Positions 9,747 to 39,800 of a DNA stretch of 64,000 nt are shown here, piece by piece. Origin of the DNA: Lacipirellulaceae bacterium (GTDB taxonomy: Bacteria > Planctomycetota > Planctomycetia > Pirellulales > Lacipirellulaceae); the NCBI GenBank assembly GCA_965228005.1, contig CBDDGV010000003.1, forward strand, positions 828,244-892,243, given 5' to 3'. The translations under genes and the position numbers were made by a program. Numbering within the stretch: position 1 is the stretch's first letter; each line of letters begins with the position of its first letter. The notes beneath the pieces were generated by a model. It made no database searches. It was not told where the DNA came from and saw only the letters and a program-made list of their open reading frames with translations.

Positions 9747-9788
9747 TGGGCGACACTGGATTCGAACCAGTGACCTCTGCGGTGTGAA
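9747..9788 (-). repeat. Partial tRNA-Val copy: 42-nt identical to the 3' half of tRNA-Val(CAC) at 39727-39768 (att-like direct repeat)
   Basis: tgggcgacactggattcgaaccagtgacctctgcggtgtgaa occurs at both sites. Identity stops inside the anticodon loop. Same orientation. Confidence 0.65.
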
Positions 9789-9982
9789 ACCGACTCGCCG
9801 AGAGCCTTGCTCCTCAGCAATTCCCGAGGAATACGGGCATCTTAGGGCTTAGATGTACCATTGCAAGACATCTCATTTGATTGCAGAGTTTCTCGGGAAA
9901 TAGCGGTATAGGGTTGAGCGACTAGTCGCGCAACACAGTAACAAAACGGTAGTGCTCTGAGGCGGTTGGCCCAAAGAAGAAC

Positions 9983-10433
9983 CGGAGCCCGAGATCGCTC
10001 CCGGGCCCCGGCGTCGTCAACAACAAGAACGGCCTACAGCAGGTTGACCACACGGTCGGCGAGGCCCTTCTCGCCGAGCACGACGTTGAGCTTGCCGCTC
10101 GTGGCGACCTTCTCCAGGACCTCCAGTTCCCGGAGACGCATCAGCGTCGTGTTGTCGGCGAGCAGGCGGGCCGTGTTGGCCTGCGACCGCATCGCGGCCG
10201 TCTCCTCGCGTCGGGCGATCAGGTTGGCCTCGGCGGCCTTCTTGGCCTCCGTGACGCGGTTGAGCAGGACCTTCATGTCGCCCGGCAGGATCACGTCCTT
10301 GACGCCCACCGAAACGACTTCCAGACCCAGCTCACCCGACCGACGACGGACCGACTCGGCGAACTCGTCCGTGACGGCGTCCTTGTCCGTCAGGAACGCG
10401 TCCAGGTCGCGCGTCGCCACGACCGCACGCAGA
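9983..10433 (-). pseudogene. Truncated duplicate of the 3' end of the SPFH/band-7 gene (98% identical to 31385-31853)
   Basis: ORF 10034..10420 translates to the last 128 aa of the 31448..32596 protein. The nucleotide repeat begins at agaaccggagcccgagatcgc at both loci. No N-terminal part is present. Confidence 0.7.
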
Positions 10434-10783
10434 GCCAGCTGAGTGGCCCGTCTCCGAGGGGTTTCAGCTGTTCCACTACTCTGCGTCTACGCATCTGATC
10501 CGTAAGGCGACTGGTCATTCGGAGATGCGATACCTACTGTGATGACTGGTCGAGTATGTGTGGGCAGATCGGTAGTTGCTGCAGAGCGGCACCGGCTGTA
10601 ACGACTCCTCCCTCTCTGGCGGGTCCGAGGCACTCGACGATTGGCCACATTCTTCTGCAATGGTTCGCGTCCTCGATTCAACCGCTTTCAATTCATCGAG
10701 ACCGCCAGAGACAGCTACTACTAGTAGCATTGAAATCAAACAAAGACGCGGCACAAGATGCAAGGAGAGAGGCGTGGATTCGA

Positions 10784-13198
10784 CTACTCGGTTACGAGCT
10801 CTAAGTCAGCGTTAACGCGAAGCTCTTCGCCGGGTTGGATACGAAAGGGTCTGAGCGATGTGCCGTGACGGAGAAGGAAGTGTGCCCCACCCCGAGAGCG
10901 AATCGTCGCCGACGAAAGCCGTCCATCCACCCATTGGACATCGACGTTAAACGCTCCACGCGCGCAGAGCCCAGAGACCGACCCGTCCGGCCACGCCTCG
11001 CTCGGGAGGGCTGGGAGCAAGTGGAGTTCGTAGGGGCCGGTTGGACCGTCGTGCTGAATGTGAGACTGCAGGAGCATCTCCGCGACACCGGCCGTGCCGC
11101 CGAAGTTGCCGTCGATTTGGAATGGCGGGTGGTTGTCGAAGAGGTTCGGGTGGGTGCTCTTCGTCAACAGCGCTTGTAGGTTCTCGTAGGCGAGATCGGC
11201 GTCGCCAAACCGGGCGAAGAAGTTGATGATCCACGCGCGGCTCCACCCGGTATGGCCCCCGCCATGCTGCAGCCGGAAGTCGATCGACTTGCGCGCCGCG
11301 TCCAGCATCTCGGGCGCCTGGAGACGGGTGTATTGCCGACCGGGGTGCACGGCGAACAGGTGGGATAGGTGGCGGTGCCCGGGCTCCGGTTCGCCGAACG
11401 GTCGGCTCCACTCCATGAGCCGACCGTCGTCGCCCACCCGGGGCAGATAGAGCCGCTCGAGCGATGAGCGGATTTCACGGAGCAGCTCGTCGTCCTCAAG
11501 CCCCAGTACCTCAGCCGCATCGAGCGTGGCACTGAACGTCTCCCAAATGATCTGCTGGCTCATGCTCGGCCCCATCGACACCGAGTAATTGCCGCCGTCT
11601 TGGGCCCGATACTTGTTCTCAGGCGAGTTGTCGGGCCCCGCTACGTAGAGGTTGGTCTCGGGGTCCAGCGTCAAATAGTCAACGTAGAAAGCAGACACCT
11701 CTCGCAACAACGGGTAAGCACGGTCGCGGAGAAACTCAGTATCCCCCGTGAAGCGGTAGTGCTCACTAAAGTGAGTTGCGTTCCACCCCAACCCGTGAGG
11801 CCACATGCCCCAGTTCAGTTGTCCGATCAACGAGGTCCAGTGCCAGACATCGCTGGTGTGACCGGCCGCGGACCCGCGTGCGCCAAACATGTTGCGAGCG
11901 GTCTTCCTTCCAGAGGGCAGCAACCGTTCGGTGTACGCAAGAAAGGGTTCGTGCAGTTCGGAAAGATCCGTTAACTCAGCCGGCCAGTAGTTCATCTGCA
12001 GGTTGATGTTCAGGTGGTAGTCGGCGTTCCAGGGGGCCTCCAGGTGCTCGTTCCAGATGCCTTGTAGGTTTGCGGGGAGGTTGCCAGGCCGCGACGATCC
12101 GATCAGCAGGTAGCGGCCGTACTGGAAGTAGAGCGCGTCGAGCCCCGGGTCGGGCGTTCCGCTCTTAACTCGCTCGAGCCTCTCGTCGGTTGGTAGCGCG
12201 TCCATGTCTCCGCTGCCCAGGTCGAGCGACACGCGACGGAACAGCTCCCGGTGCTCGGTGATGTGCCTGCTTAGGAGTTCTCCGAGTCTCTTGCCATCGA
12301 CTCCTGCGAGCGCCTCACCGACTCGATGTTGTGGCAGTTCCGGCGAGCGGCGGTGAGGCGATTGCGGCTGGTAATCCGTTGCAGCAGCGATGTAGAGGGT
12401 CACGCTGTTGGCGTCTGACACTTCGATTGATTCGCCGACGAGTTTCCTATTTCCTCCGTCGGTAACCGTCCGCACAGTCGCCTGCCAGAAGACCCCTGCG
12501 TGTTTGCCCTCATGGCTAGCCTGCCCGGCCATGGTCAGCAGCCCACGGTCGTCGCCGCTGGTGCTGAAACCGGACGTCCGGTCGAGCCGCACGCGGAGAT
12601 TGACTGCATTAGGTTGGTCCGCCTCGATCGAGACGACCAGCACATCGTCAACCGCCGACGCGAAAACCCGGCGGCGGTAGGTTACGCCTTCAATGTCAAA
12701 CGAAGTGGAGGCGATTGCCGAGTCGAGGTCGAGCTGTCGGCGGTACCCCGTCGGCCGGCCTTCGACGCCAAGCAGCGTCAGGCGTAAGTCGCCGAGCGTC
12801 TGGTAGCTTCGCGGCGAGATCCGCTCAGACATGCTCGATTGCAAGAGCCGATGCGCCTCGGCATAGTTGCCGGCGAACCACGCAGCCCGCGACTTGGGGA
12901 GCGCATCGCGCATCGAAGGGTTGTCCTGCGGCGTGGGGGGGCCCGCCCAAACAGATTCCTCATTCATCTGGATGCGCGCCTCGGATACGCCGCCGAAGCA
13001 CATCGCCCCCAGTCGCCCGTTACCGACGGGAAGCGCCTGTGTCCATTGCTCGGCAGGCTTGTCGTACCACAGGCAAGCGCCGGGCCCCGCCAACGCCGAG
13101 CTTACCCAAAAAAGGGTCAAACAAACCCACAGGTAACGGCCGCGTGCGCCCAGCCTGTTGCGAATCAGCTCAGACAACTCAACAAAGCCCCAATTCAA
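10784..13198 (-). CDS. glycoside hydrolase family 95 (alpha-L-fucosidase-like)
   Basis: 804 aa. N-terminal [43 protein letters not shown] matches the conserved GH95 N-terminal motif. Confidence 0.7.
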
Positions 13199-13297
13199 AA
13201 CGCCGCCCTCCTGTGCCGTGTATCAAAACGCGCCGTGAATCGGAACGCGTAGGCAAGAATAGCCCTGCTCAGCCGAGTAGATCATGAGCGTAGACTT

Positions 13298-14545
13298 CTA
13301 CCCATTGTCTTTGTCGAAGCTCGAGAGGTCCCAACGAGTCCGCCATTCGATTCGAAAAGAGCCGTCCCCGTCGAAACGAAGCGGCAGCCAATAGTAGCGG
13401 CCGTCGATGGCGTTCTTCGGTCGCCACTCGTCGAACAAAGCGATGTACGCGTTCTCTGATCCTTTAACCGGGAGCACGTAGGTGCTCTGCCCGCCGAAGG
13501 TCTTCTCCGGCCCTAACCCGTTGTGCGGATTCGTCCCTACACAAGGATTGCCCAGCGGTTTCCAGGGCCCCCAAATCGAGTCCGCCACCGCCGAGCGCGC
13601 CGCGTTTGGCGCCCACCCGGTGCAGCCCGAAGCAAGCAGGTAGTACTTCCCTTGGTGCTTGAATAGCGCCGGCGCCTCGTTGTGCCCGCCCGGCAACACG
13701 CGGACGTAGCGGCCGGTGAAATCGAGGTAGTCGCCCGATAGTTCCGAGATATGCAGCGTGTGATTTTCCTCGGAAGCGTGAACGTGGTAGGCAGTGCCGT
13801 CGTCATCGACAAACAGCGTCATGTCCCTTGCCATCTGACCGCCTTCGTAATCGCGCCGTGTTAGCACTCCTTCGACCACACTGTCGTGGTCGAAGGCGGC
13901 ATCAGAGGACTCGCCCGCCAGTCGGTTCTTCGCGGGTAGATTCTCTGGCCACTTGTCGGCGTTGGGGCGGTGTGATCCGAGATAGCGATAAGGACCGGCC
14001 GCGTCGTCAGCCACAGCGAGCCCCGTGCGGGCGGCCTTGTACCCCCGGCCGCGGAGTTCGAGGTGAAACCACATCACGAACCGCTTGGTCTTGGCGTTGT
14101 AGATGACCTTGGGGCGCTCGATGACGCAGCCAGCGACAATCTCGCTGGACGGGTCGTCCGAGACCGCGAGGGCGACGCCCTGATTGGACCAGTTGTAGAG
14201 GTCGGTCGATCGGTAGCACCGCACCCCGACATTGGCCACGTTGCCCGCTGAGCCCTGCGTCTTGTGCTCACCGAACCAATAGTAGGCCCCTGCGTGCTGC
14301 AGCAACCCGCCGCCATGAGCGTTGATGTGGACGCCGGCCTCGTCTGGCCAGAGCTGACCGGGCAAGAAGGAGTCGCGGGGCGAACCCACGGCGGCGGTTC
14401 CCACATCGCCTTTAGCCGTCTCGGCAGGAGCAGCGCTGTGTAAGCACCAAGTTGGTAGCGTCAACGCCAGTATCCCCACGGCAATACCACGGACGGATGG
14501 TCGAGTCGCCCAGTGACCGTGACGACCTCTGCCTAGGTTTGACAT
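13298..14545 (-). CDS. glycoside hydrolase family 43-like (five-bladed beta-propeller) protein
   Basis: Start chosen at MSNLGRGRH with a signal peptide; the longer ORF would overlap the upstream gene. GH43-like segments AYYWFGEHK and YYLLASGCTGW. Confidence 0.55.
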   Translation of the reverse strand: MSNLGRGRHGHWATRPSVRGIAVGILALTLPTWCLHSAAPAETAKGDVGTAAVGSPRDSFLPGQLWPDEAGVHINAHGGGLLQHAGAYYWFGEHKTQGSAGNVANVGVRCYRSTDLYNWSNQGVALAVSDDPSSEIVAGCVIERPKVIYNAKTKRFVMWFHLELRGRGYKAARTGLAVADDAAGPYRYLGSHRPNADKWPENLPAKNRLAGESSDAAFDHDSVVEGVLTRRDYEGGQMARDMTLFVDDDGTAYHVHASEENHTLHISELSGDYLDFTGRYVRVLPGGHNEAPALFKHQGKYYLLASGCTGWAPNAARSAVADSIWGPWKPLGNPCVGTNPHNGLGPEKTFGGQSTYVLPVKGSENAYIALFDEWRPKNAIDGRYYWLPLRFDGDGSFRIEWRTRWDLSSFDKDNG

Positions 14546-14577
14546 CGACCCCGGACATCCTAGTGAGCCGACCAGCG

Positions 14578-16152
14578 CTACCTCCAGATCTCCCATGTAT
14601 CCGTCCTGAATGGAGTGACGGGCAGAATGCCCTTTTCGGTGTACAGGTTGCACTCCGGATTGTCGCCCCACGCATAACGAACGGCCAGGGGCTCTGTGAC
14701 ATAGGGATGCCACACCTCAATCCTTCCATTGCCCAGGTGGCGGGCAAAAGCTGCTCGCCAGGTCCGGTCGGACCCGCGGATCGCGAATCCAACGATCGGG
14801 TCCCCAGCGTCGCCGTCGACGGTTTGCAAGCCGTTCCCAATGGGCGAGAGAGTCACCACGACCTTGTCCTCCACGATCTTATGGTCGACCAGCCTGGGGC
14901 TCTCGTAATCGAGGTCGTAGCCGTAGTTCTTCGCCAAGGCGATTCGGGCCAGGCGGTTTGCAACCTCGTGCTTATTGCGAGGGTGCACGTCGTCCGAGGC
15001 GCCAAGATCGATGATGACCGCTTGACCCGTGTCCGACAGGCGATCGAGCGTCAAAGTCTGAGCTTCCCGCAACCGAGCCCACGACGAGTCGAAGGACCCT
15101 TCCTGGCGTTCCAGATAAGCGGCGAGCTGCACCCAGTAGAACGAGAGCTTCTCTTGGTTCCATGCGTCCCGCCACGACTGAATCAAGAGCGGGAAGAGTT
15201 CCCGGTACTCTTCCGGCCGCCAGGCATTCGACTCGCCCTGATACCAAAGCACGCCCCGGACCGCGTACCCGGCAATCGGCGCGATGCGTGCTTCGTAGAG
15301 GTTGCCGGGCCTGGCGTTACCCATGGACCAAATGCTAGACGGGAGCGGCCGCTCCTCGGGCTGCCGACCTTCTTGCCGAAGCTTGGTCGACCGTCGCTCC
15401 CAATCAGAGAACGCCTGCTCGAACCAGGCCTTCGCCCCGGCGTCGTCTCCTTCACGGTCTTTCTGGCGCCACTCATCAAGACGGTTGGCGAACGCCGGGT
15501 CGGCTTCAACGATCCGCCGGGGAGTCCATGCTTCGGCAGCGGATCCCCCCCAGGCGTTATCGATCAGGCCGACAGGTACACCGAGCGTTCCTTGCAGACG
15601 CCTCGCAAAGTAGTAGCCGACCGCGGAGAATCGTTGAGCGTTCTCGGGAGTGCATCGTTCCCAAGAGCCTTCGAAGTCGTAGAGCGGCTCTTCCGACCCA
15701 TAGTTGTCCACCGTAAGCAACCGGATCGACGGGTGATCGGCGACGAGCAGTTCGATGTCTCCGTTCATCGCCCCGCCCACCGAGAACTGCATGTTCGATT
15801 GCCCAGAGCAGACCCAGACTTCACCTACGAGAACGTCCGTCAGCTCGATCTGGCCATCACCGTCAACAAGGATGGTCAGCGGCTCGCCCGTCGTGAGAGG
15901 ATCCAGCACGACCCGCCACCTCCCGTCTACTGCGGCGGTGGTCGTGTGGGTCTGATGGTTCTCACCACCGGAGACGGTTACCGTGACCTCGGTTCCCGGC
16001 GCGGCCTTCCCCCATAGCGGGGCCGCAGCGTCACGCTGCAGGACCATGCCGTCGCTGAACAGGTTCGGCATGGAAAGCTCTGCGTGAGCGGCGGAGCAAA
16101 GTACCGCCAGAAAGGCAGGCCACGCAACGTAAGGAAGCCCCAGGAGATTCAT
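14578..16152 (-). CDS. sialate O-acetylesterase family (SASA/DUF303) carbohydrate esterase
   Basis: Signal peptide, then EVWVCSGQSNMQF and WYQGESN motifs characteristic of the SASA esterase fold. Confidence 0.7.
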   Translation of the reverse strand: MNLLGLPYVAWPAFLAVLCSAAHAELSMPNLFSDGMVLQRDAAAPLWGKAAPGTEVTVTVSGGENHQTHTTTAAVDGRWRVVLDPLTTGEPLTILVDGDGQIELTDVLVGEVWVCSGQSNMQFSVGGAMNGDIELLVADHPSIRLLTVDNYGSEEPLYDFEGSWERCTPENAQRFSAVGYYFARRLQGTLGVPVGLIDNAWGGSAAEAWTPRRIVEADPAFANRLDEWRQKDREGDDAGAKAWFEQAFSDWERRSTKLRQEGRQPEERPLPSSIWSMGNARPGNLYEARIAPIAGYAVRGVLWYQGESNAWRPEEYRELFPLLIQSWRDAWNQEKLSFYWVQLAAYLERQEGSFDSSWARLREAQTLTLDRLSDTGQAVIIDLGASDDVHPRNKHEVANRLARIALAKNYGYDLDYESPRLVDHKIVEDKVVVTLSPIGNGLQTVDGDAGDPIVGFAIRGSDRTWRAAFARHLGNGRIEVWHPYVTEPLAVRYAWGDNPECNLYTEKGILPVTPFRTDTWEIWR

Positions 16153-33360: not shown

Positions 33361-33364
33361 GTAG

Positions 33365-33580: not shown

Positions 33581-33652
33581 CATCTCGACCTGGGGTCGAA
33601 CCAGGACCTGGGCTTTAGGAGAGCCCCGTGCGGTCCATTACACTATCGAGAT
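33581..33652 (-). tRNA. tRNA-Arg(CCT)
   Basis: AC arm gggct-ctcctaa-agccc. Acceptor perfect. Confidence 0.6.
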
Positions 33653-33656
33653 GTGG

Positions 33657-33730
33657 GGCCGACGGCTGGATTCGCACCAGCATGATCCGGTTTACAAGAC
33701 CGGCGCCTTTCTAGGTCGAGCCACGTCGGC
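33657..33730 (-). tRNA. tRNA-Thr(TGT)
   Basis: AC arm ccggt-cttgtaa-accgg. T-loop variant tgcgaat. Confidence 0.55.
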
Positions 33731-33734
33731 ACAG

Positions 33735-33803
33735 CAGGAGTGCAAGGAATCGAACCCTGCTCGGCGGTTTTGGAGGCCGCTTGCTTCCCAGAAGCACACT
33801 CCT
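33735..33803 (-). tRNA. tRNA-Trp(CCA) with an unusually short D-arm
   Basis: AC loop ctccaaa. Acceptor aggagtg/cactcct perfect. D region is only 16 nt. Confidence 0.5.
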
Positions 33804-33813
33804 GTAGTTCGAG

Positions 33814-33887
33814 GGCATCCGGAGGGATTCGAACCCTCACTTCCTGCTTCACAGGCAGGCGTGCGTACCGTGTACACCTCGGACACC
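33814..33887 (-). tRNA. tRNA-His(GTG) with encoded G-1
   Basis: AC arm cctgc-ctgtgaa-gcagg. Extra 5' G opposite C73, as expected for bacterial tRNA-His. Confidence 0.65.
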
Positions 33888-33921
33888 ATAAGTTGGGCCG
33901 CCGTCGCCGACGGCCCAACAG

Positions 33922-34722
33922 TCAGTCGATGAACGCCACGTGCCGCATGGCCGCCGAGTCGGTCTCGGTGTTCAACAGCACCTGACGCCACTCCTTCAGC
34001 ACGATCGTCTTGTGATCGGCGTGCCGTACCTTGCCGCGTACGAAGACCAGAGGGTTCCGCTTCTGGGTGACCCAGTGCAGGTTCCGCATCTTCGGCCGAC
34101 GGCTGATCAGCTGACGGTACTGCTCGACGGTCAAGCCGTTCGGACGCGCGTTGCTGACGTAGACGGTCTCGCCGCCCTGACGCACCAACTCGTCGACCAT
34201 GTGCGGCTTGCCGCCGCCGCGGATCAGCGGCTCGTTCCGCAGGATCAGCCTCTCGTCGACCCGCACCCACCGTGGGACCGGGACGAAGAACCACTCACCC
34301 TGGCGGACGAACGCCTCGTTGCGACGGCGGTTCCGCTTCCTCCGCTTGACCTTCAGCTCGTCCTGCCGACGCCGGACCGGCAGCGGCTTCAACGCCTCCA
34401 TCGCCGTAATGACATTGGAGGCGCCCGCCCGCTCCGGCACCGCGGCGACGAACCAGTGACGCTCGTCGTGGCCGCATAGGAACTTGTGCTTCCCGTCCGA
34501 ATCACGGGACATCAGCAGCAAGTGCCGCTCCCGCGGCCGCGTATCGACGACCTGCAGCTCCCGCTCACGACCGGGCAGGACCGAAACGCCGAAGAACTCG
34601 CCCTCGGCGTCCGACCCGATGTCGATCGATACGCTGCTCTGCAGCCGCCTCGATACGCTAACGTCAACCTTGGCACGCGCGCCGATCTTGGCGAAGTGCC
34701 GCTCAATCAAGTGCGCGTTCAT
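33922..34722 (-). CDS. hypothetical protein embedded in the tRNA array (267 aa, basic K/R-rich centre)
   Basis: ORF on the same strand as the tRNAs, with no overlap of neighbouring tRNAs when started at MNAHLIERHF. Contains FLCGHDERHWFVAAVPE and KVKRRKRNRRRNEAF. No family recognised. Confidence 0.5.
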   Translation of the reverse strand: MNAHLIERHFAKIGARAKVDVSVSRRLQSSVSIDIGSDAEGEFFGVSVLPGRERELQVVDTRPRERHLLLMSRDSDGKHKFLCGHDERHWFVAAVPERAGASNVITAMEALKPLPVRRRQDELKVKRRKRNRRRNEAFVRQGEWFFVPVPRWVRVDERLILRNEPLIRGGGKPHMVDELVRQGGETVYVSNARPNGLTVEQYRQLISRRPKMRNLHWVTQKRNPLVFVRGKVRHADHKTIVLKEWRQVLLNTETDSAAMRHVAFID

Positions 34723-34757
34723 AGGAACGTCCTCCAGGAAACAGAAAACAAAACCAG

Positions 34758-34842
34758 CGGAAGGAGAGGGAGTCGAACCCTCAAGGCAGTGAAGCTCCAC
34801 CGGCTTCCAACCGGGTCCCGTCGCCCATCGGGTAGCCCTTCC
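34758..34842 (-). tRNA. tRNA-Ser(GGA), type II
   Basis: 85 nt. AC loop ttggaag. Long variable arm. G73. Confidence 0.55.
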
Positions 34843-34850
34843 GTACCCAG

Positions 34851-34940
34851 TAGCCCGACCAGGATTCGAACCTGGCCCCGTCACTCAGCAAACGCGGCTC
34901 GTTAGAAGCGAGGGATGATCGTCCGTTTCACCATCGAGCC
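34851..34940 (-). tRNA. type II (long variable arm) tRNA with apparent anticodon TCT; identity ambiguous
   Basis: 90 nt, A73, 21-nt variable arm. AC loop cttctaa closed by a 4-bp stem plus a C-C mismatch. Confidence 0.4.
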
Positions 34941-34963
34941 AAACTCTTTTTTGCAAACGCAAG

Positions 34964-35053
34964 CGGAAGGCATGGGATTCGAACCCACATGCCGCGAGTG
35001 AGGCGGCTCCGCATTAGCAGTGCGGCCCGGCGAGCCGTATCCGGCTGCCTTCC
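34964..35053 (-). tRNA. tRNA-Ser(GCT), type II
   Basis: 90 nt. AC arm ccgca-ctgctaa-tgcgg. G73. Acceptor perfect. Confidence 0.6.
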
Positions 35054-35061
35054 GTGTTTAG

Positions 35062-35150
35062 TGGACCCACTGGGAATCGAACCCACCGCGTTCCCCTAAG
35101 GACGTAGGCCGACCTGCCGAGCCGGTGTCGTCCCGTTGGACCATGAGCCC
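35062..35150 (-). tRNA. type II tRNA-like gene, anticodon unresolved (Leu-like D-arm)
   Basis: 89 nt. Acceptor pairs with G-U wobbles. D-arm resembles tRNA-Leu. AC loop tcggcag has no U33. Confidence 0.35.
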
Positions 35151-35161
35151 TCGTGTGGAGT

Positions 35162-35234
35162 GGACCGGAAGGGAATCGAACCCTTCGCACCGACTTTGCA
35201 AGAGTCAGTCGCCCCCTTGGAACATGCCAGCCCA
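35162..35234 (-). tRNA. tRNA-Ala(TGC)
   Basis: G3:U70 in the acceptor. AC loop cttgcaa. A73. D-arm non-canonical. Confidence 0.55.
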
Positions 35235-35243
35235 TTCTCTGAG

Positions 35244-35314
35244 AGGTCCGTCCGGGAATTGAACCCGGTCCTCGTCCTTACCACGGACGCGTGCGGCCGA
35301 AACACTTACAGACC
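35244..35314 (-). tRNA. tRNA-Thr(GGT)
   Basis: AC arm cgtcc-gtggtaa-ggacg. Confidence 0.55.
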
Positions 35315-35320
35315 ATCGAG

Positions 35321-35393
35321 TGATCCCGGATGGAATCGAACCATCTATCTCCTGGGTGTCATCCAGGCGTCGTAGCCGTTGGACCACGGGATC
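35321..35393 (-). tRNA. tRNA-Val(GAC)
   Basis: AC arm cctgg-atgacac-ccagg. Acceptor perfect. Confidence 0.55.
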
Positions 35394-35398
35394 GTCAG

Positions 35399-35474
35399 TG
35401 ACCAGGGTGGGAGTCGAACCCACAAAATCACCAGGCTCTCGACCTGGTCGCTTTGCCAGTTTGCGTACCCAATC
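35399..35474 (-). tRNA. tRNA with Leu-type anticodon GAG on a short-variable-arm scaffold (atypical)
   Basis: AC arm ccagg-tcgagag-cctgg. 7-nt variable region. D-arm ta-cgc-aaactggcaa-agcg. A73. Confidence 0.35.
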
Positions 35475-35482
35475 ATGGGAAG

Positions 35483-35550
35483 TAGCGGGTCCGGGAGTCG
35501 CACCCGACGGTCCAGGCTTATGAGGCCCGGCTGAGCCTGGCTCACCCGCA
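35483..35550 (-). tRNA. tRNA-Met(CAT)-like with 1:72 mismatch and aberrant D-arm
   Basis: AC arm cgggc-ctcataa-gcctg. U1-U72 unpaired. D region is only ~14 nt. Confidence 0.35.
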
Positions 35551-35557
35551 TCAGCAG

Positions 35558-35658
35558 TAGCCAAGGGGCCGCGTATTCAGGGAAACGGGGCGAACTCCCA
35601 CGCCACAAGTGGCACGACATTCTGAGTGTCGCGTGTCTACCTGTTCCACCACTTGGCT
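35558..35658 (-). tRNA. tRNA-Leu(CAG)-like, type II, atypical T region
   Basis: AC arm cgaca-ctcagaa-tgtcg. Variable hairpin gccac-aa-gtggc. Leu-like D-arm tg-gtg-gaacaggtaga-cac. Acceptor agccaag/cttggct. Confidence 0.4.
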
Positions 35659-35665
35659 GTATCAG

Positions 35666-35736
35666 TAGCCCGTACGGGAATCGAACCCGTGCCGCGAGTT
35701 TGAGGGACTCGCATCCTGCCGCTAGACCAACGGGCC
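35666..35736 (-). tRNA. tRNA-Glu(CTC)
   Basis: Glu-like D-arm tg-gtc-tagcggcagga. AC loop ccctcaa with C33. Confidence 0.5.
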
Positions 35737-35749
35737 TCTCTCGTGTCAG

Positions 35750-35831
35750 TGCGCCGGGCAGGAGTTGAACCTGCACAGCCCGAAGGCGGGTGGGTTACAG
35801 CCACTGGGGCTCGCCGATGCCCAGCCGACGC
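35750..35831 (-). tRNA. tRNA-Tyr(GTA), type II
   Basis: 82 nt. AC loop ctgtaac. D-stem gggc/gccc. Long variable region. Confidence 0.55.
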
Positions 35832-35846
35832 ATGAGTTGTTGCCAG

Positions 35847-35923
35847 TAGCACGGGTGGGAGTCGAACCCACAAACTGTCACGAAGGTTTGAGCTTCGTCG
35901 CTTTGCCGTTTGCGTACCGTGCC
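35847..35923 (-). tRNA. tRNA with Leu-type anticodon CAA on a short-variable-arm scaffold (atypical)
   Basis: AC arm cgaag-ctcaaac-cttcg. 9-nt variable region. A73. Confidence 0.4.
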
Positions 35924-35931
35924 GGATCGAG

Positions 35932-36006
35932 CGTCCCCGGCGGGATTTGAACCCGCGTCCTCCACCGTGACAGGGTGGCGAGCACTCCAGGCTGCTCCAC
36001 GAGGAC
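35932..36006 (-). tRNA. tRNA-Asp(GTC)
   Basis: AC arm ccacc-ctgtcac-ggtgg. G73. D-stem gagc/gctc. Confidence 0.6.
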
Positions 36007-36014
36007 CTGTTGAG

Positions 36015-36088
36015 TGGCTCAGGTGGGATTCGAACCCACAGCATCCTCGGGTTTAAGCCAAGGTGGTCTGCCGATTGCCTACCGAGCC
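36015..36088 (-). tRNA. tRNA with Leu-type anticodon TAA on a 74-nt type I scaffold (atypical)
   Basis: AC arm cttgg-cttaaac-ccgag. 6-nt variable region. A73. Confidence 0.4.
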
Positions 36089-36109
36089 GCCCGTTCACTT
36101 GCTTGTGAG

Positions 36110-36182
36110 TACCCAAAGCAGGATTCGAACCTGCAAACACCTGATCCTAAGTCAGGCCGCTCAGCCGTTGGCGTATCTGGGC
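36110..36182 (-). tRNA. tRNA with Leu-type anticodon TAG on a 73-nt type I scaffold (atypical)
   Basis: AC arm cctga-cttagga-tcagg. 5-nt variable region. A73. Confidence 0.4.
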
Positions 36183-36194
36183 ATCGCATCGAAG

Positions 36195-36267
36195 TAGTCC
36201 TGGGTGGACTCGAACCACCGATCTTCTTCTTGTAAGGAAGCCGCCTTTGCCGCTAGGCCACAGGACT
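36195..36267 (-). tRNA. tRNA-Val(TAC)
   Basis: AC loop cttacaa. Acceptor agtcctg/caggact perfect. D-stem gcct/aggc. Confidence 0.55.
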
Positions 36268-36366
36268 GAAAACCACAGTGCTTTAGCAAAAGTTGACCTA
36301 CTCGCATTTGCTTGCTAACCTTTGCTGGGCGCAGCGGAACAGTACTTGGAAACAGCGGTCGAGCCA

Positions 36367-37044
36367 ATGAAACGCTACCTACTTCTGTTCATATTCACCT
36401 CTCAATCAGTTTGTTTTTCTAGCAGTCTGATACTTGACCAATCGTTTGAATGGGAATCACCAGCACACTATGGTGGTTTCGGTTCAGCCTCCATGGGAAA
36501 AAGGCAAGCCCAAACCTTTACAGTTGGAGTTACAGGATCATTGCGTCGCATTGAGATTGCTGTTCGTCCGGAAGGCGAGCGTGAAGAAATGAACACAGAT
36601 CAAATTGAAATCTTTCTTGTGCAAACGGTGTCTGGATTACCAAACCTAAACCCGGCTAGTATGTTGGCATCAAGTTCAGAAACCATTCCGACTCCGGGTT
36701 CAGTACTCGTCCAGGGTGGGGAAAACAATAGGTTCCAGGACTTCCATTGGGCACAGTTCGACCTACCTCCAACAAGTGTGGTGTCTGGCGAACTCCTTGC
36801 AATCGTCTTGTCTACCGAAATCAATCATGGGTATCATTGGGCAGCAAGTTTTCCCGGATCATATTTATACGGTCGTGGGCTAAGAGGCTCTTCGGAAGGT
36901 ATATATGCTGAACCTCCGATTAACTTTCAGCATCGCGACTGGTTGTTTCGAACCTATGTCGTTCCGATTCCAGAGCCATCAGGAGCGCTATTGCTGGCTT
37001 TGGGAACAATTACTTTATGCGCCATCAGGAAGCGCCGAAGTTGA
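36367..37044 (+). CDS. PEP-CTERM protein, low-GC (foreign-looking) gene inside the tRNA array
   Basis: MKRYLLLFIFTSQSVCFSS signal. Ends VPIPEPSGALLLALGTITLCAIRKRRS. Coding sequence is AT-rich relative to the ~65% GC surroundings. Opposite strand to the tRNAs. Confidence 0.55.
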   Translation: MKRYLLLFIFTSQSVCFSSSLILDQSFEWESPAHYGGFGSASMGKRQAQTFTVGVTGSLRRIEIAVRPEGEREEMNTDQIEIFLVQTVSGLPNLNPASMLASSSETIPTPGSVLVQGGENNRFQDFHWAQFDLPPTSVVSGELLAIVLSTEINHGYHWAASFPGSYLYGRGLRGSSEGIYAEPPINFQHRDWLFRTYVVPIPEPSGALLLALGTITLCAIRKRRS

Positions 37045-37060
37045 TTCGATTTCTAGGGAA

Positions 37061-37122
37061 CTGCGGGGGTTGGAATCGAACCAATCCCAGCGCGCCCCGT
37101 CCTACCGTTGAACGACCCCGCA
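37061..37122 (-). tRNA. truncated tRNA-like gene lacking an anticodon arm (pseudogene)
   Basis: Perfect 7-bp acceptor tgcgggg/ccccgca, D-arm and T-arm present. Only 12 nt sit in place of anticodon arm plus variable region. Confidence 0.4.
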
Positions 37123-37140
37123 TAAGTTATCTCCCTCTAG

Positions 37141-37215
37141 TTCCGGGGGTAGGAATCGAACCTACGGACTCCTGGTTCAAAGCCAGGCAACACTACCAGC
37201 AGCGTCGACCCCGGA
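37141..37215 (-). tRNA. tRNA-Gln(TTG)
   Basis: AC arm cctgg-ctttgaa-ccagg. Acceptor perfect. Confidence 0.55.
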
Positions 37216-37261
37216 ATGCTTCCATCAAGAGAGTGCCCTGCGGGAGTCGGCCGCTCCACGA

Positions 37262-37316
37262 AGGACTACCGCGTGTCGCCTCGCTCCTCCCTACCGGTCG
37301 GCGGCGACACTTGCTC
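37262..37316. repeat. Conserved ~60-nt element, copy B (see 33470-33530)
   Basis: ctaccgcgtgtcgcctcgctcctccctaccggtcggcggcgacacttgctccc. Confidence 0.5.
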
Positions 37317-37425
37317 CCGCCTCGCCTGGTTGGAAGCCCGGAGCCTCTGCCGCTCGGCCAACGGAAGCAACCGAGCACGGCTGACTCAACGTCAGCCGAG
37401 CGCAGGGCGGTAGCTCTCAGAAAAG

Positions 37426-37513
37426 CGGAAGGAGTGAGAGTCGAACTCACAAGGCGCGCGTGGCGCTCGACTGCTTTCGAGGCAGCTGCCATCGCCCATT
37501 GGCTTGCCCTTCC
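37426..37513 (-). tRNA. type II tRNA-like gene with Ser(GGA)-like acceptor and abnormal (6- or 8-nt) anticodon loop
   Basis: Acceptor ggaagga/cccttcc identical to the tRNA-Ser(GGA) at 34758. Anticodon hairpin ctcga-aagcag-tcgag. Confidence 0.35.
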
Positions 37514-37521
37514 GTTTGGAG

Positions 37522-37593
37522 CACCGGTGGGAGGACTCGAACCTCCACTCGTCGGCTTAACAGGCCGCCGCCTTACCGTTTGGCCACACCGGT
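37522..37593 (-). tRNA. tRNA-Asn(GTT)
   Basis: AC loop ctgttaa. Acceptor accggtg/caccggt perfect. Confidence 0.55.
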
Positions 37594-37602
37594 TCATGTG
37601 AG

Positions 37603-37676
37603 TCAGGACGGCTGGATTCGAACCAGCGGTCTCGTGCGCCCGAGGCACGCGGAATACCAGGCTTTCCCACGCCCTG
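37603..37676 (-). tRNA. tRNA-Pro(CGG)
   Basis: AC arm cgtgc-ctcgggc-gcacg. D-stem ggaa/ttcc. Confidence 0.55.
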
Positions 37677-37683
37677 AATCGAA

Positions 37684-37754
37684 TGCGCCCAGCCGGAATC
37701 GAACCGACACACCCTGCATGGCGAGCAGGAAGGCTGCCACTACATCATGGGCGC
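37684..37754 (-). tRNA. tRNA-Gly(GCC)? (C33 in loop)
   Basis: AC arm cctgc-tcgccat-gcagg. Acceptor gcgccca/tgggcgc perfect. Confidence 0.4.
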
Positions 37755-37807
37755 AAAACAATGCGAATTAAGTTGTCAAAGAACGCGGAACGACCGGCCG
37801 TTCCGAG

Positions 37808-37879
37808 AGCACCGGGAGGGATTCGAACCCACGTAGCCGCTGTACGAGAGCGGAGTCTTTGCCTCTAGACGACCAGTGC
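37808..37879 (-). tRNA. tRNA-Thr(CGT)
   Basis: AC arm ccgct-ctcgtac-agcgg. Confidence 0.55.
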
Positions 37880-37889
37880 TTGTTGTCAG

Positions 37890-37962
37890 TGGGACCAGAG
37901 GGACTCGAACCCTCACCCGCCTGGGTAAGAACCAGGGATGCTGCCGCTAACACCTCAGTCCC
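37890..37962 (-). tRNA. tRNA-Lys(CTT)
   Basis: AC arm cctgg-ttcttac-ccagg. Confidence 0.55.
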
Positions 37963-37977
37963 AAAACCGTCTCGCAG

Positions 37978-38050
37978 TTGGCGCGGGAGGAATTGAACCC
38001 CCGACCCACGACTTATAAGGTCGTCGCTCTCACCACTGAGCTACGCGCCA
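37978..38050 (-). tRNA. tRNA(TAT), AUA-decoding tRNA-Ile2-like
   Basis: Fully canonical cloverleaf. Acceptor tggcgcg/cgcgcca. D-arm ta-gctc-agtggtga-gagc. AC arm acgac-cttataa-gtcgt with U33 and A37. Confidence 0.6.
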
Positions 38051-38069
38051 TGAAAGGGGGCGCAAGCAG

Positions 38070-38141
38070 TGGGGCCGGAGGGATTCGAACCCTCACCGTG
38101 CGGATTAAAAGTCCGTCGTGCAGCCGTTACACCACAGCCCC
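38070..38141 (-). tRNA. tRNA-Lys(TTT)
   Basis: AC loop cttttaa. Acceptor pairs with one G-U. Confidence 0.55.
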
Positions 38142-38223
38142 GAGGTCTGGGTTGGGCGTATCGGTTTGCGTCGGCGGACAGTCGACATCGTGTTGCTCCT
38201 AGTGGTTCGCGAAGTGCCGTGAG

Positions 38224-38295
38224 TGGTAGTCCTGGGAATCGAACTCAGCGCCGCGGTCTTATCAGGACCACTTGGGCAACCAGCCCTCGACTACC
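38224..38295 (-). tRNA. tRNA-Ile(GAT) (array copy, distinct from the chromosomal copy at 49397)
   Basis: AC loop ctgataa. Acceptor ggtagtc/gactacc perfect. Confidence 0.55.
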
Positions 38296-38299
38296 GTGA

Positions 38300-38392
38300 G
38301 TCGGGCGCCTCGGGGTCGAACCGCCGTGTCCCTTAGCAAACGGGGCTCCTGCTCCCAAAAGCAGGCGTGCTCCCATCTGCACCTCCGCCCGG
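38300..38392 (-). tRNA. type II tRNA-like gene with an 8-nt anticodon loop ttttggga (Pro UGG-like plus one U)
   Basis: AC arm cctgc-ttttggga-gcagg. Long variable hairpin. Weak T-stem. Confidence 0.3.
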
Positions 38393-38401
38393 TGTTTTCA
38401 G

Positions 38402-38475
38402 TCAGAACGGTCGGATTCGAACCGACGGCCTCTTGGCCCCCAGCCAAGCGCGATACCTAGCTTCGCCACGTTCTG
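38402..38475 (-). tRNA. tRNA-Pro(GGG)
   Basis: AC arm cttgg-ctggggg-ccaag. Acceptor cagaacg/cgttctg perfect. Confidence 0.55.
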
Positions 38476-38484
38476 ATTGGTCAG

Positions 38485-38556
38485 CACCCCGTGAGGGAAT
38501 CGAACCCTCATCTGCGGATTGAAAGCCCGCCATCCTCGCCGTTAGACCAACGGGGC
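38485..38556 (-). tRNA. tRNA-Glu(TTC)
   Basis: AC loop ctttcaa. Glu-like D-arm tg-gtc-taacggcgagg. Confidence 0.55.
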
Positions 38557-38610
38557 GTGTCGTGTCTCCTTGTGCGCGCACCGGGTGCGCACGGTGTCTC
38601 TGAAACCCAG

Positions 38611-38682
38611 TGGGCCGGGAGGCGCTCGAATCCTCGTCTGCGGTTCTTCAGACCGCCGCTATACCGTCTCAGCTACCAGCCC
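38611..38682 (-). tRNA. tRNA-Phe(GAA)
   Basis: AC arm gcggt-ctgaaga-accgc. D-stem gctg/tagc. Confidence 0.55.
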
Positions 38683-38721
38683 TAATGGTCGTGGGGTCGG
38701 CCTCTTCGATCGGCAGGAGCC

Positions 38722-38759
38722 AAAGAAAAAGGCCCGGCGTCTGTCTGACACCGGGCCTT
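38722..38759 (-). terminator. intrinsic terminator-like hairpin for minus-strand transcripts arriving from the NUDIX gene
   Basis: ggcccgg...ccgggcc stem followed, on the minus strand, by TTTTTCT. Confidence 0.35.
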
Positions 38760-39054
38760 GTGGCTCATCAAAGAGTCCAGCCGAGTGTCATGTGCGCCTT
38801 GGTTCGCAGGCGGGCGCGTACCCAGGCTTATCGTTCGCCGGTTGGGCGAGCGGCAAGCCGGCGGTATTCGCCGTATGCGATGAGCGTATGAAACTCAGCT
38901 GTAACATGGTTCCGTCTCCGGAGAGGGTTGCTTCTTTTCAACTCTACCCGCTTTTCACGCCGCGGGTCGCGTCTAGGTAACTATAGACGACATAAACCGG
39001 GTCAGGTTCACAGGCTTTCTTGGAAAAAACCACAAATCCGTTTTGGCTCGGAAC

Positions 39055-39483
39055 TCAGCCGCCGCAGTCGGTCTGCAGTGCGCCGAGAAGTGCGTCCAGA
39101 ATCTCGGCCAACGACGGAGCCAAGAGTTGTCTGGCTTCTTCGAAGCCGACGACCAGGCGCTCTCGAGTTGCTTGCTCCTCCCACTCCTCGAGCAGGCTCT
39201 CCACGGCGAGAGGGTAGATGTCGATGCGTGCGAGGCCGCCCCATTTCTCCTGCTCGTAAGTCCCGAGTGCCTCTCCGGTGATCCGTCCGACGACGCCCGC
39301 CTCTTCCTGGGCTTCTTTCACCGCGGTTGATTCCGGCGTCTCCCCGGGGTCGATCACCCCCTTCGGGAAAATCCACTTCCCCGATGACCTGGACGTGATG
39401 AGGACAATCTCCAGCCCAACGCCGTCCTGCAGGTACGGCAGACCCCCGGCCTGACGGAACAAGAAGTCCGGTTTCTTCGCCAA
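39055..39483 (-). CDS. NUDIX hydrolase
   Basis: Nudix box GKWIFPKGVIDPGETPESTAVKEAQEEAGV. Confidence 0.75.
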   Translation of the reverse strand: MAKKPDFLFRQAGGLPYLQDGVGLEIVLITSRSSGKWIFPKGVIDPGETPESTAVKEAQEEAGVVGRITGEALGTYEQEKWGGLARIDIYPLAVESLLEEWEEQATRERLVVGFEEARQLLAPSLAEILDALLGALQTDCGG

Positions 39484-39726
39484 ATCGAGTCCTCCTGAAG
39501 TTGGGAACGATTTGCAAGCTTCTCGAACAGTTTAGAGGCAATACCAACGCTGTCACTGACCAACAGGCACATTGGTAGATCTCCGACGAGGACTTCGAGA
39601 AGGACTCAACAGACCGCTGCCAACCGCGTAGCAGCAGGCAGCCAGTTGGGCTCGCATAGCAAAGGAGGGCGAGCGTGCACGAGAGCCGACGAGCCCTGTC
39701 TAGCCGGCCGAAGAGGAGAGATTCAG

Positions 39727-39800
39727 TGGGCGACACTGGATTCGAACCAGTGACCTCTGCGGTGTGAACACAGCGCTCTAACCAACTGAGCTAGCCGCCC
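39727..39800 (-). tRNA. tRNA-Val(CAC), intact; its 3' 42 nt are repeated at 9747-9788
   Basis: Canonical cloverleaf gggcggc-ta-gctcagttggttagagc-g-ctgtg-ttcacac-cgcag-aggtc-actgg-ttcgaat-ccagt-gtcgccc-a. Confidence 0.85.

Follow-up and report, generated by a model that had tools for sequence, protein, structure and literature searches.

A Probable Decayed, Integrase-Less Composite Island With a Long tRNA Array in the tRNA-Val(CAC) Gene of a Lacipirellulaceae-Like Planctomycete

A Repeat of the tRNA-Val 3' Half Bounds 30 kb of DNA

The 64-kb stretch of planctomycete DNA that was analyzed here (the window) raises the question whether two copies of the 3' half of a tRNA-Val gene, lying 30 kb apart, are the ends of an integrated element, and what this element would be if no integrase comes with it. 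Our answer is that the segment 9745–39768 is probably a decayed, integrase-less, composite island in the tRNA-Val(CAC) gene of a Lacipirellulaceae-like planctomycete, resembling a cis-mobilizable element (CIME). The following features define its ends.

39726–39800 (or 39727–39800), minus strand: intact tRNA-Val(CAC), called by ARAGORN and by Rfam (65.5 bits, gathering score 29)
39725–39768, minus strand: attL-side repeat copy, consisting of the 3' 42 nt of the tRNA-Val and 1–2 nt downstream
9745–9788, minus strand: attR-side repeat copy, an orphan tRNA 3' half recognized as a sequence repeat
9710–9726, minus strand: GC-rich hairpin GCCCGCC-tgc-GGCGGGC, read from the sequence, 18 nt outside the attR copy
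9789–9976, minus strand: unique spacer of 188 bp between a Band7 relic and attR, delimited by sequence comparison

The preliminary description of the locus reported a 42-bp repeat of the tRNA-Val 3' half at both ends and an intact tRNA-Val(CAC) at the right end, and both statements hold. The 42-mer occurs in two exact copies (0 mismatches; 0 expected by chance in 100 shuffles), whereby the exact direct repeat is in truth 44 bp long (9745–9788 = 39725–39768), and no third copy was found with up to 13 mismatches allowed. The first base of the repeat coincides with that of the anticodon loop (TTCACAC), and the repeat extends 1–2 nt beyond the 3' end of the tRNA. This 3' end faces the enclosed DNA, as is expected for attL and attR. 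Thus, the segment has the layout of a tRNA island, being bounded by a repeat of the tRNA 3' end with the intact tRNA facing inward. The left copy does not belong to a second full tRNA-Val gene, a case that the preliminary description had considered, because neither ARAGORN nor Rfam called a tRNA at 9745–9820 and the neighboring sequence is unrelated to the tRNA-Val 5' half. The hairpin at 9710–9726, which the terminator scan did not call because it has no T-run, may be the hairpin that once lay downstream of the tRNA gene. The spacer is presumed to be the attR-proximal end of an earlier element; it shows no similarity to any fetched locus and shares no arm-type motifs with the region 39484–39724.

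Related Genomes Carry Other Elements at the Same tRNA-Val

It had been proposed to compare related genomes for an empty tRNA-Val site. This comparison revealed a synteny break at the tRNA and other elements inserted there; no empty site and no relative with the left flank abutting the tRNA-Val were found among the relatives compared. In the relatives L136 and L105, the tRNA-Val lies in the neighborhood that it also has in the window, with ExbBD, a prenyltransferase-like gene and two TatA genes. The closest relative, L105 (approximately 85% nucleotide identity, 84% for a flank protein), is collinear with the window from 52382 to 39719 at 85–89% nucleotide identity. The homology stops 6–7 nt past the tRNA-Val, and a Phage_integrase gene, coding for a tyrosine integrase, follows 127 bp further on in an element that also contains DUF1580 genes. 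The 44-bp repeat is identical in L105. Integrase genes adjoin the same tRNA-Val in the more distant relatives L113, L114/L121 and L117 as well, and L136 harbors a complete element of 6.3 kb with genes for an integrase, an Xis-like HTH_17 protein, AAA_25 and ParE, which has the tRNA at one end and, at the other, a copy of the tRNA 3' end that is exact over 14 bp (19/21). In L135, no integrase gene follows the tRNA-Val. As far as sequence comparison goes, the relatives support an integration site at the tRNA-Val. The putative left boundary is drawn solely from the repeat, the host-like GC3 of the left-flank genes and the hairpin just outside.

The small tyrosine-integrase elements of L136 and L105 have the attB gene, its neighborhood and a direct repeat of the tRNA 3' end on the far side in common with the window. 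However, they have kept their integrase, and the repeat of L136 is short (14–21 bp) and T-loop-proximal, whereas in the window the repeat measures 44 bp, the integrase is missing and the cargo is unrelated.

The Island Has Probably Lost Its Recombination Genes

39537–39602, plus strand: possible remnant of a tyrosine integrase gene, corresponding to its last ~22 codons (GNTnaV..aHW*ISDEDFEK), from a tblastn alignment

The preliminary description had seen no integrase, and this was confirmed, since no Phage_integrase, Recombinase, rve or transposase domain was detected in any sizeable ORF of the 64-kb window and a tblastn search of the window with the L105 integrase yielded no match. Pfam and PHROG scans of the island ORFs revealed no excisionase, relaxase, oriT, T4SS, packaging signal or phage structural gene within the 30 kb. 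Hence the integrase gene that a tRNA island would carry inside the element, as a rule beside the tRNA, is missing, as are the capsid, portal and terminase genes of a prophage and the T4SS and relaxase genes of an ICE. The stretch at 39537–39602 may be what is left of an integrase C-terminus. It contains an in-frame stop and is convergent on the tRNA, as the integrase genes of L136 and L117 are, and its Smith-Waterman score of 39–40 is in marginal excess of the maximum of 38–39 in 528 background windows; with such a short match, this is only suggestive. Among the three options that had been offered for the missing integrase (a degenerate element, mobilization in trans or an integrase located elsewhere), the degenerate element fits best, with no recombinase in 64 kb and a stop-interrupted integrase-like stretch.

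It might also be that the 30-kb unit is an active satellite without an integrase of its own, which is routinely excised and transferred by an integrase from elsewhere in the genome or from a co-resident element at the tRNA-Val. Both 44-bp att copies are perfectly intact, the closest relative has an integrase-bearing element at exactly the same tRNA with the identical 44 bp, and accretion-mobilization is on record for CIMEs (PMC5704250). Nevertheless, this is unlikely, since the 30 kb contains no excisionase, oriT, relaxase or packaging signal, the att-proximal regions have no arm-type repeats in common, and the interior rather resembles decay and illegitimate joins. Moreover, 44 bp are too short for their perfect identity to show continuing selection for mobility.

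The tRNA Array Belongs to a Module Found in Other Planctomycetes

33005–38682, minus strand: long tRNA array with 36 tRNAs called by ARAGORN (33193–38682) and a partial tRNA (33005–33067)
33922–34722, minus strand: ORF266, encoding a conserved 266-aa protein, between tRNA-Ser(GGA) and tRNA-His
36322–37044, plus strand: low-GC ORF (GC3 0.42) on the opposite strand inside the array, with a PEP-CTERM-like C-terminus in translation
38692–38895, minus strand: conserved array leader upstream of tRNA-Phe
39055–39483, minus strand: NUDIX hydrolase gene (Pfam 4.6e-12; PHROG nudix 2e-21) between tRNA-Val and the array
31391–32596, minus strand: full Band_7/SPFH gene (ORF 31448–32554 or 31448–32596; Pfam 1.3e-29) with its own terminator

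The 36 tRNAs occupy 5,490 bp (6.6 per kb), all on the minus strand, which lies above the limits for a long array (at least 20 co-oriented tRNA genes at a density of at least 2 per kb). They cover 19 amino acids, lacking Met and including Ile(UAU). The Rfam gathering score was passed by 25 of the 36 and by the partial tRNA, whereby tRNA-Ile(UAU) was the best-scoring member with 71 bits. The array Ile(GAU) stays below the gathering score and is 63% identical to the canonical Ile(GAU) at 49397–49471. The array tRNAs may be supernumerary to the housekeeping tRNAs, from which they appear to have diverged. Their gene order is shared with 30 other planctomycete loci, and the mean identity to the tRNAs of the L024 array amounts to 90%.

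Array, ORF266 and Band7 recur with conserved order at unrelated sites in other genomes, and in 14 further loci the array is followed by a Band7 homologue. The array of a Bythopirellula sp. is located between copies of IS66 and IS3, about 5.3 Mb along the contig from the tRNA-Val locus of that genome. Band7, Ro60 and HNH genes are often neighbors of planctomycete arrays. Relatives of ORF266 are also found beside or in the tRNA arrays of large viral contigs. Among the planctomycete arrays, the ORF266 identities drop with taxonomic distance, which suggests that they have long resided in the phylum and have also moved. The leader contains a box of the TGTGACAC type together with a 13-bp hairpin and T-run (38759–38729). 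The opposite-strand ORF at 36322–37044 has no Pfam or PHROG match, and no homologue of the NUDIX gene was found in the other array loci.

Leader, 36 tRNAs, ORF266 and Band7 could together form a self-contained translation-rescue or anti-defence cassette that is common to planctomycetes and large phages, in which ORF266 would be a mobility protein or a new enzyme acting on tRNA, and the leader a terminator/antiterminator switch that activates the array under translational stress. We put this forward as a speculative proposal, with a modest chance of being right.

The Island Is Probably a Patchwork With a Nested Band7 Repeat

10442–31390: cargo block of 21 kb, annotated with Pfam
9977–10441, minus strand: Band7 relic (copy Y-B) with the last 128 codons (10034–10420) and 57 bp that include a terminator hairpin (10012–9981)

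Domain searches bore out the contents that had been named before, i.e., CAZyme/PEP-CTERM genes, the band-7 gene, the tRNA array and NUDIX. The carbohydrate genes of the cargo block encode GH95, a GH43-like protein, a SASA esterase, a CE2/GDSL esterase and a second SASA protein, and its regulatory genes encode a FecR-NPCBM anti-sigma factor and an ECF sigma factor. The remaining products are a DUF1559/N-methyl protein, ORF180, two paralogous PEP-CTERM-type proteins, a phosphodiesterase-TPR protein, a sulfotransferase-like protein and a second DUF1559 protein. The mean GC3 of the cargo genes is 0.75 compared to 0.83 and 0.86 in the flanks (Mann-Whitney p = 3e-5), and the GC content of the island is 0.615 compared to 0.655 and 0.671; its composition is thus atypical for the host, as in a tRNA island. 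Composition is uneven within the island, and three cargo genes (23106–27159) show a host-like GC3 of 0.84–0.85. Neither a homologous cargo block near arrays elsewhere nor an IS or other junction feature that would account for the entry of the 21-kb block was found.

The block is bracketed by a second, nested direct repeat of 465 bp that is absent from the preliminary description (9977–10441 = 31391–31855; 460 of 465 positions identical), whose right copy (Y-A) is the 3' 465 bp of the full Band_7 gene. All five differences are synonymous third-position changes (P about 0.0015 if neutral). Therefore, two Band7 alleles meet here. Together with the array module and the compositionally distinct cargo, this argues for a patchwork and not for the single 30-kb element of the preliminary description. 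If a single element had integrated once with all its cargo, the Band7 fragment would have to be an in-place duplication of 465 bp. Such a history needs the fewest integration events and agrees with the finding of att copies at the two ends and none in between. Yet the exclusively synonymous changes fit two working genes rather than a dead copy arisen in situ, the composition inside the island is heterogeneous, and at other loci the array module lacks this cargo, so that we regard a single integration as quite improbable.

Equally improbable, in our estimation, is that there is no island at all and that the 30 kb are mostly native chromosome, with 9745–10441 as debris of a local rearrangement or of a small decayed insertion. 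The left flank (rhamnosidase, RhaT, sugar isomerase) and the cargo both encode plant/algal glycan utilization, some cargo genes have host-like GC3, and an empty site was not found among the relatives. Given this functional likeness, part of the cargo could indeed be native chromosome. However, the orphan tRNA half lies 30 kb off in the direction in which the tRNA 3' end points, has the same orientation as the tRNA and ends sharply at the anticodon loop; the synteny with L105 stops precisely at the tRNA; the order X-spacer-Y-cargo-Y-array-X, with X for the 44-bp and Y for the 465-bp repeat, needs extra steps under simple duplication or deletion; and the mean GC3 of the cargo differs from that of both flanks. 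A chimeric assembly join at the repeats is highly implausible, even though the source is apparently an uncultured-genome (metagenome-assembled) contig of 1.65 Mb with two nested repeats, because the 465-bp copies differ at 5 positions and are thus no collapsed repeat, 44 bp are too short to mislead the assembly of a long contig, every junction is unique sequence, and the variation at this tRNA site among relatives has biological causes.

Proposed Origin and Known Counterparts

The decayed composite island could have arisen as follows. A tyrosine-recombinase element would have integrated by recombination between an attP carrying the 3' 44 nt of the tRNA and the chromosomal gene, which restored a complete tRNA gene at the attL end and displaced the original 3' half to the attR end. 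In later remodeling, the tRNA-array module with leader, 36 tRNAs, ORF266 and Band7, which is conserved across Planctomycetota, would have entered, with the NUDIX gene upstream, and the 21-kb CAZyme/ECF-sigma block would have come to lie between the Band7 gene of this module and the truncated Band7 relic of a second, related element. This position of the cargo points to recombination or fusion of two related elements; no inner att relic was found at the junction between them. The integrase gene would have disappeared except for about 22 degenerate codons at most. We infer the order of these events. On its own the island is presumably immobile and would be excisable only with a matching integrase from another element at the same tRNA.

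The definition of CIMEs (PMC5704250), for example CIME19258 and CIME302 of Streptococcus thermophilus, fits the island because both att sites are intact and the recombination genes are absent. Like the island, CIMEs have kept an attL and an attR that stem from the 3' end of their target gene but no longer have genes for integration/excision and transfer, and they commonly form composite or accreted structures at a single att site. In contrast to CIMEs, the window contains no partner ICE or IME and no inner att, and its mobilization would be by analogy only; in contrast to the streptococcal examples, the host is a planctomycete and the cargo a tRNA array with CAZymes.

ICEAfe1 of Acidithiobacillus ferrooxidans is reported to be a tRNA-array ICE that integrates in a tRNA gene via the anticodon-loop region (PMC4758250, PMC8421152, bioRxiv 10.1101/2020.11.02.365908). 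It likewise combines a long tRNA array on an element in a tRNA gene with an att on the anticodon-loop side, but has about 300 kb and its own integrase and conjugation genes, whereas the island has 30 kb and neither. L-arrays, such as the trn operon of Anabaena sp. PCC 7120 (PMC8421152), and tRNA array units (Tran et al., PMC4758250) resemble the array of the window in their many co-oriented, apparently supernumerary and divergent tRNAs and in their patchy occurrence. Elsewhere L-arrays are linked to HNH endonucleases and RNA-repair-type genes. Planctomycete arrays differ by a conserved order of their own, the embedded ORF266, the Band7 gene and a leader that is both distinct and conserved. For planctomycete genomes, "degenerate tRNA gene clusters" that include a canonical tRNA-Ile(UAU) have been described, with a suggested HGT origin (PMC4807772). 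With its mixture of high- and low-scoring tRNAs and with tRNA-Ile(UAU) scoring best, the array of the window is the same phenomenon; as far as is apparent, that account describes no att-bounded context, ORF266/Band7 association or leader.

Significance

The island is real but of a familiar kind and involves no new mechanism; it is an ordinary case of tRNA genes collecting, and then fossilizing, mobile DNA. What it contributes is an example from the planctomycetes with glycan-degrading genes and a full, apparently spare set of tRNAs between att scars, and it presents the tRNA-Val downstream of two TatA genes as an integration hot spot across a whole family. If the cassette proposal were true, the island would be a snapshot of a cassette carried by, and disabling, an integrative element. 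More useful are the by-products, i.e., the array order, the embedded, highly conserved ORF266 that also occurs in tRNA arrays of large viral contigs, the Band7, Ro60 and HNH neighbors and the structured leader, which provide handles on what long tRNA arrays do, how they are switched on and how they are moved.

The tRNA-Val Repeat Pair and the Enclosed Segment

The preliminary description had taken a 42-mer from the 3' half of tRNA-Val as the boundary of an integrated island, and this 42-mer indeed occurs exactly twice in the window with 0 mismatches, where no copy would be expected by chance. It extends to a 44-bp exact direct repeat (repeat family D14), with one copy at 9745-9788 and the other at 39725-39768, and neither a third copy nor an inner att relic was found in the window when up to 13 substitutions were allowed. 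In the sense of the tRNA, the repeat runs from the first base of the anticodon loop (TTCACAC) to the tRNA 3' end plus 1-2 nt. The tRNA-Val 3' end faces lower coordinates and hence the enclosed DNA, and at a distance of 30 kb the orphan half has the same orientation. This is the geometry expected of an attL/attR pair. Neither ARAGORN nor Rfam calls a tRNA at 9745-9820, and the sequence adjoining the orphan half bears no relation to the 5' half of tRNA-Val; thus, the objection that the repeat could belong to a second full tRNA-Val gene does not apply. A search for arm-type integrase-binding motifs common to both att-proximal regions yielded none above shuffled controls.

Features of the island and its flanks, from the right flank to the left
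39801-64000: right flank with two TatA, prenyltransferase-like, ExbD/ExbB, TPR, BON and thioredoxin-like genes and the canonical tRNA-Ile(GAU), among others
39726/7-39800 (-): intact tRNA-Val(CAC), called by ARAGORN and Rfam (65.5 bits against a gathering score of 29)
39055-39483 (-): NUDIX gene, first island gene counted from the tRNA
38692-38895 (-): conserved leader ahead of the array
38682-33193 (-): array of 36 tRNA genes
36322-37044 (+): low-GC PEP-CTERM-like ORF on the opposite strand, interrupting the array
34722-33922 (-): ORF266, a conserved 266-aa protein gene, second interruption of the array
33005-33067 (-): partial tRNA (Rfam model positions 5-66, 57 bits), past the last ARAGORN call of the array
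32554-31448 (-): Band_7 gene
31390-10442: 21-kb cargo block with CAZyme, ECF sigma/FecR, PEP-CTERM and DUF1559 genes
10441-9977 (-): truncated Band_7 3' end
between truncated Band_7 and orphan tRNA half: 188-bp spacer of unique DNA
9745-9788: orphan tRNA half, far end of the island
left flank: rhamnosidase, RhaT, sugar isomerase and a 19-aa-repeat protein

The host is a planctomycete with DUF1559 plus N-terminal methylation-motif proteins, PEP-CTERM proteins and nearest homologues in Bythopirellula and Lacipirellulaceae. With X for the 44-bp repeat and Y for a repeat of the Band_7 3' end, the order on the minus strand is tRNA(5' half)-X, NUDIX, array, Band_7 ending in Y, cargo, Y, spacer, X. 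The ORF at 36322-37044 has a GC content of 0.50 (GC3 0.42) and a C-terminal PEP-CTERM-like sorting signal (PEPS, hydrophobic stretch, RKRRS), and gave no family match. Within the cargo block, the PEP-CTERM gene at 21673-22974 and the adjacent gene at 23106-24002 are paralogues with 78-82% identity over about 550 bp (22045-22722 vs 23223-23894) and represent a local tandem gene duplication. A tRNA-Ala(GGC) called by ARAGORN at 28529-28613 (-) lies within a SASA esterase ORF, has no Rfam support and is probably a false positive. Just beyond the left end of the island, an ORF at 6397-8928 without a Pfam match is made up of two blocks with about 35 tandem copies of a 57-bp (19-aa) unit in all, with both strands open. 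In the right flank, a 14-bp unit (CTTTCTTGTAGCTA) is repeated five times in tandem at 52537-52606, intergenic and upstream of an FGGY kinase gene, and a 31-nt inverted repeat (63044-63074 and 63457-63487, 97% complementary, arms 382 nt apart) is located near the right end of the window.

Occupancy of the tRNA-Val Site in Relatives

A homologue with 84% identity to the flank protein encoded at 40640-42454 is present in a metagenome-assembled genome from NCBI (locus L105). L105 is collinear with the window from 52382 to 39719 at 85-89% nucleotide identity, and all similarity ends 6-7 nt beyond the tRNA 3' end. The same tRNA-Val with the identical 44 bp is present there, followed 127 bp on by a gene for a 391-aa Phage_integrase protein and then by unrelated small genes. 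In more distant relatives, the arrangement ExbD, prenyltransferase, TatA, TatA, tRNA-Val is kept; an integrase homologue lies about 120 bp past tRNA-Val in L113 and L114/L121, and in L117 an integrase gene on the opposite strand has its end at tRNA-Val. On a 5.66-Mb Bythopirellula contig (L136), a compact element at 12782-19190 encodes an integrase, HTH_3, a ParE toxin, AAA_25 and an Xis-like HTH_17 protein. Its ends are tRNA-Val and, 6.3 kb off, a repeat of the tRNA 3' end that is exact over 14 bp (19/21). It is a complete integrative element and a positive control for what a tRNA-end repeat means in this lineage. The integrases found at tRNA-Val across these relatives make the site an integration hot spot for at least two integrase types.

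A further locus, L135 (64% identity), has a tRNA-Val without an integrase after it; its downstream genes are unrelated to the left flank of the window, and we did not take it as an empty site. The isomerase homologues from the left flank (L106-L109) share only window positions 651-5583 and are uninformative on position 9745, and the junction and spacer DNA showed no similarity to the fetched loci. In none of the fetched loci did the left flank adjoin tRNA-Val, and the left boundary of the island, set by the repeat, is putative.

Base Composition and a Candidate Integrase Relic

No integrase or serine recombinase domain was detected when the sizeable ORFs of all 64 kb were scanned, as had been noted at first inspection, and the same ORFs contained no transposase, excisionase, relaxase or phage structural domains. 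The GC content of the cargo block (0.615) and of the array segment (0.614) is lower than that of the flanks (0.655 and 0.671). The mean GC3 of the 14 cargo genes is 0.75, against 0.83 on the left and 0.86 on the right (Mann-Whitney p=3e-5); in three of the cargo genes, at 23106-27159, GC3 is host-like (0.84-0.85).

Between NUDIX and tRNA-Val, a plus-strand frame reads GNTNAVTDQQAHW*ISDEDFEK and, like the integrase genes of L136 and L117, converges on the tRNA. It can be aligned to the end of the L117 and L136 integrases that holds the catalytic tyrosine (GNTPKVAQRHYLKVTDSDFEK), and the core GNTP.VA..HY is also present in a third homologue, L137. The local-alignment score of 39-40 is higher than that of each of 528 equally sized background windows, albeit barely (maximum 38-39). 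It is probable but unproven that this stretch is an integrase relic; if so, the body of the integrase gene would have been replaced by NUDIX-array DNA.

A Nested Repeat of the Band_7 Gene

A second repeat, which had been missed in the preliminary description, is nested within the first. The stretches 9977-10441 and 31391-31855 match over 465 bp with 5 mismatches and comprise the final 128 codons of Band_7, with no amino-acid difference, as well as 57 bp downstream with the terminator hairpin of the gene. On one side the homology ends just past this hairpin, on the other side in the middle of the gene. All five differences are synonymous third-position changes, for which the chance under random substitution is about 0.0015. 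Both copies thus diverged while they were working genes, and the truncated copy is the relic of a second, related Band_7 gene; a duplication in situ was rejected on the same grounds. We also rejected the derivation of the order X-Y-cargo-Y-X from a tandem duplication followed by deletion of native DNA, because the X-spacer copy expected between the cargo and the full Band_7 gene is absent.

The tRNA Array as a Recurrent Module

ORF266 has more than 7,400 homologues, with 65-78% identity among the best 120. The best 80 ORF266 loci, with one genome per species, were scanned for tRNAs within the fetched flanks; half of them (40/80) contain at least 5 tRNAs and thirty contain at least 15. In these thirty loci the order F E P (I) K I K T G P N S G Q Q ... 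V T A S R S [ORF266] H W T R R R C is conserved. A Band_7 gene follows the array in 14 distinct loci. In planctomycete array loci other than the window, a Ro60-like TROVE+vWA gene follows the array in 15 and an HNH endonuclease gene occurs in 8 (L032 13647-15383, L028 10893-11549 and matching ORF clusters for these two genes). The latter two genes are both absent from the window; as neighbors elsewhere, they link the arrays to RNA quality-control and homing-type genes. NUDIX was found beside the array only in the window among the array loci compared, and no homologues of the cargo block were found near other tRNA arrays.

On average, the tRNAs in the array of the window are 90% identical to those in the array of Bythopirellula L024. 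The array Ile(GAU) has only 63% identity with the canonical Ile(GAU), which lies 10 kb away, and it falls below the Rfam threshold, and 11 of the 36 array tRNAs miss the Rfam gathering score. The array fits the long tRNA arrays that spread horizontally (PMC8421152; PMC4758250), and it also fits the planctomycete "degenerate tRNA gene clusters" with a canonical tRNA-Ile(UAU) described in PMC4807772. Copies of IS66 and IS3 enclose the array in L024/L027, where about 5.3 Mb of contig separate it from the tRNA-Val locus of the same genome, and the two closest ORF266 homologues among the matches listed (78%) have no tRNA array. The module thus has no fixed position. It recurs as a unit outside the island.

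The leader upstream of the first array tRNA is conserved in 19 loci (alignments A2 and A3) and matches no Rfam family. It contains an invariant TGTGACAC(T)CG box, 35-45 nt ahead of a 13-bp GC-rich hairpin with a T-run; this hairpin shows compensatory changes, and covariation is also seen in another hairpin on the 5' side. The box can pair with the 5' arm of the GC-rich hairpin (9 pairs, 96% of cells paired) and may thus form part of a terminator/antiterminator switch. It could also be that the box is a -35-like promoter element.

Origin of the Composite Island

The reading as an island integrated at tRNA-Val thus stands as far as the integration signature and the degenerate state are concerned; it was incomplete, since the island is a composite. 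In its interior, the conserved array module is joined by a cargo block of different composition and by the relic of a second Band_7 allele, and its att-type repeat pair lies at a proven hot spot with no recombination genes remaining. We suggest that an element with its own integrase, possibly one of the L136/L117 type, inserted at tRNA-Val, whereby an array module ending in Band_7, terminator, spacer and attR would have belonged to this element or to a related one. Later, two related elements, or resident and incoming DNA, may have recombined and the integrase may have been lost. Such a recombination would have put the full Band_7 gene and the 21-kb block ahead of the truncated resident Band_7, for which one homologous end and one illegitimate join inside Band_7 would suffice. 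Two tandem elements that fused with deletion of the inner att site and the integrase would give the same picture. At the island joins we found no inner att relic, IS or junction homology, and because all three are absent the two routes look alike.

Active mobilization in trans is a less probable reading. If the segment were mostly native chromosome with some debris, the similar functions of the left flank and the cargo would be accounted for, but this reading needs more steps and conflicts with the orientation of the orphan half, the sharp boundary and the mean shift in composition. A single 30-kb element that duplicated its Band_7 end in place is at odds with the exclusively synonymous differences. 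Misassembly is unlikely, as the long repeat copies differ and every junction is unique sequence.

The island is predicted to be immobile by itself, and its excision would need an integrase of the same specificity from another element. Like a cis-mobilizable element (CIME) as defined in PMC5704250, it has kept both att sites and lost the genes for integration and transfer. The island joins the known classes of tRNA-integrated islands, CIME-like remnants and carriers of long tRNA arrays, and the conserved protein and the leader of the array module are more promising leads than the island itself.
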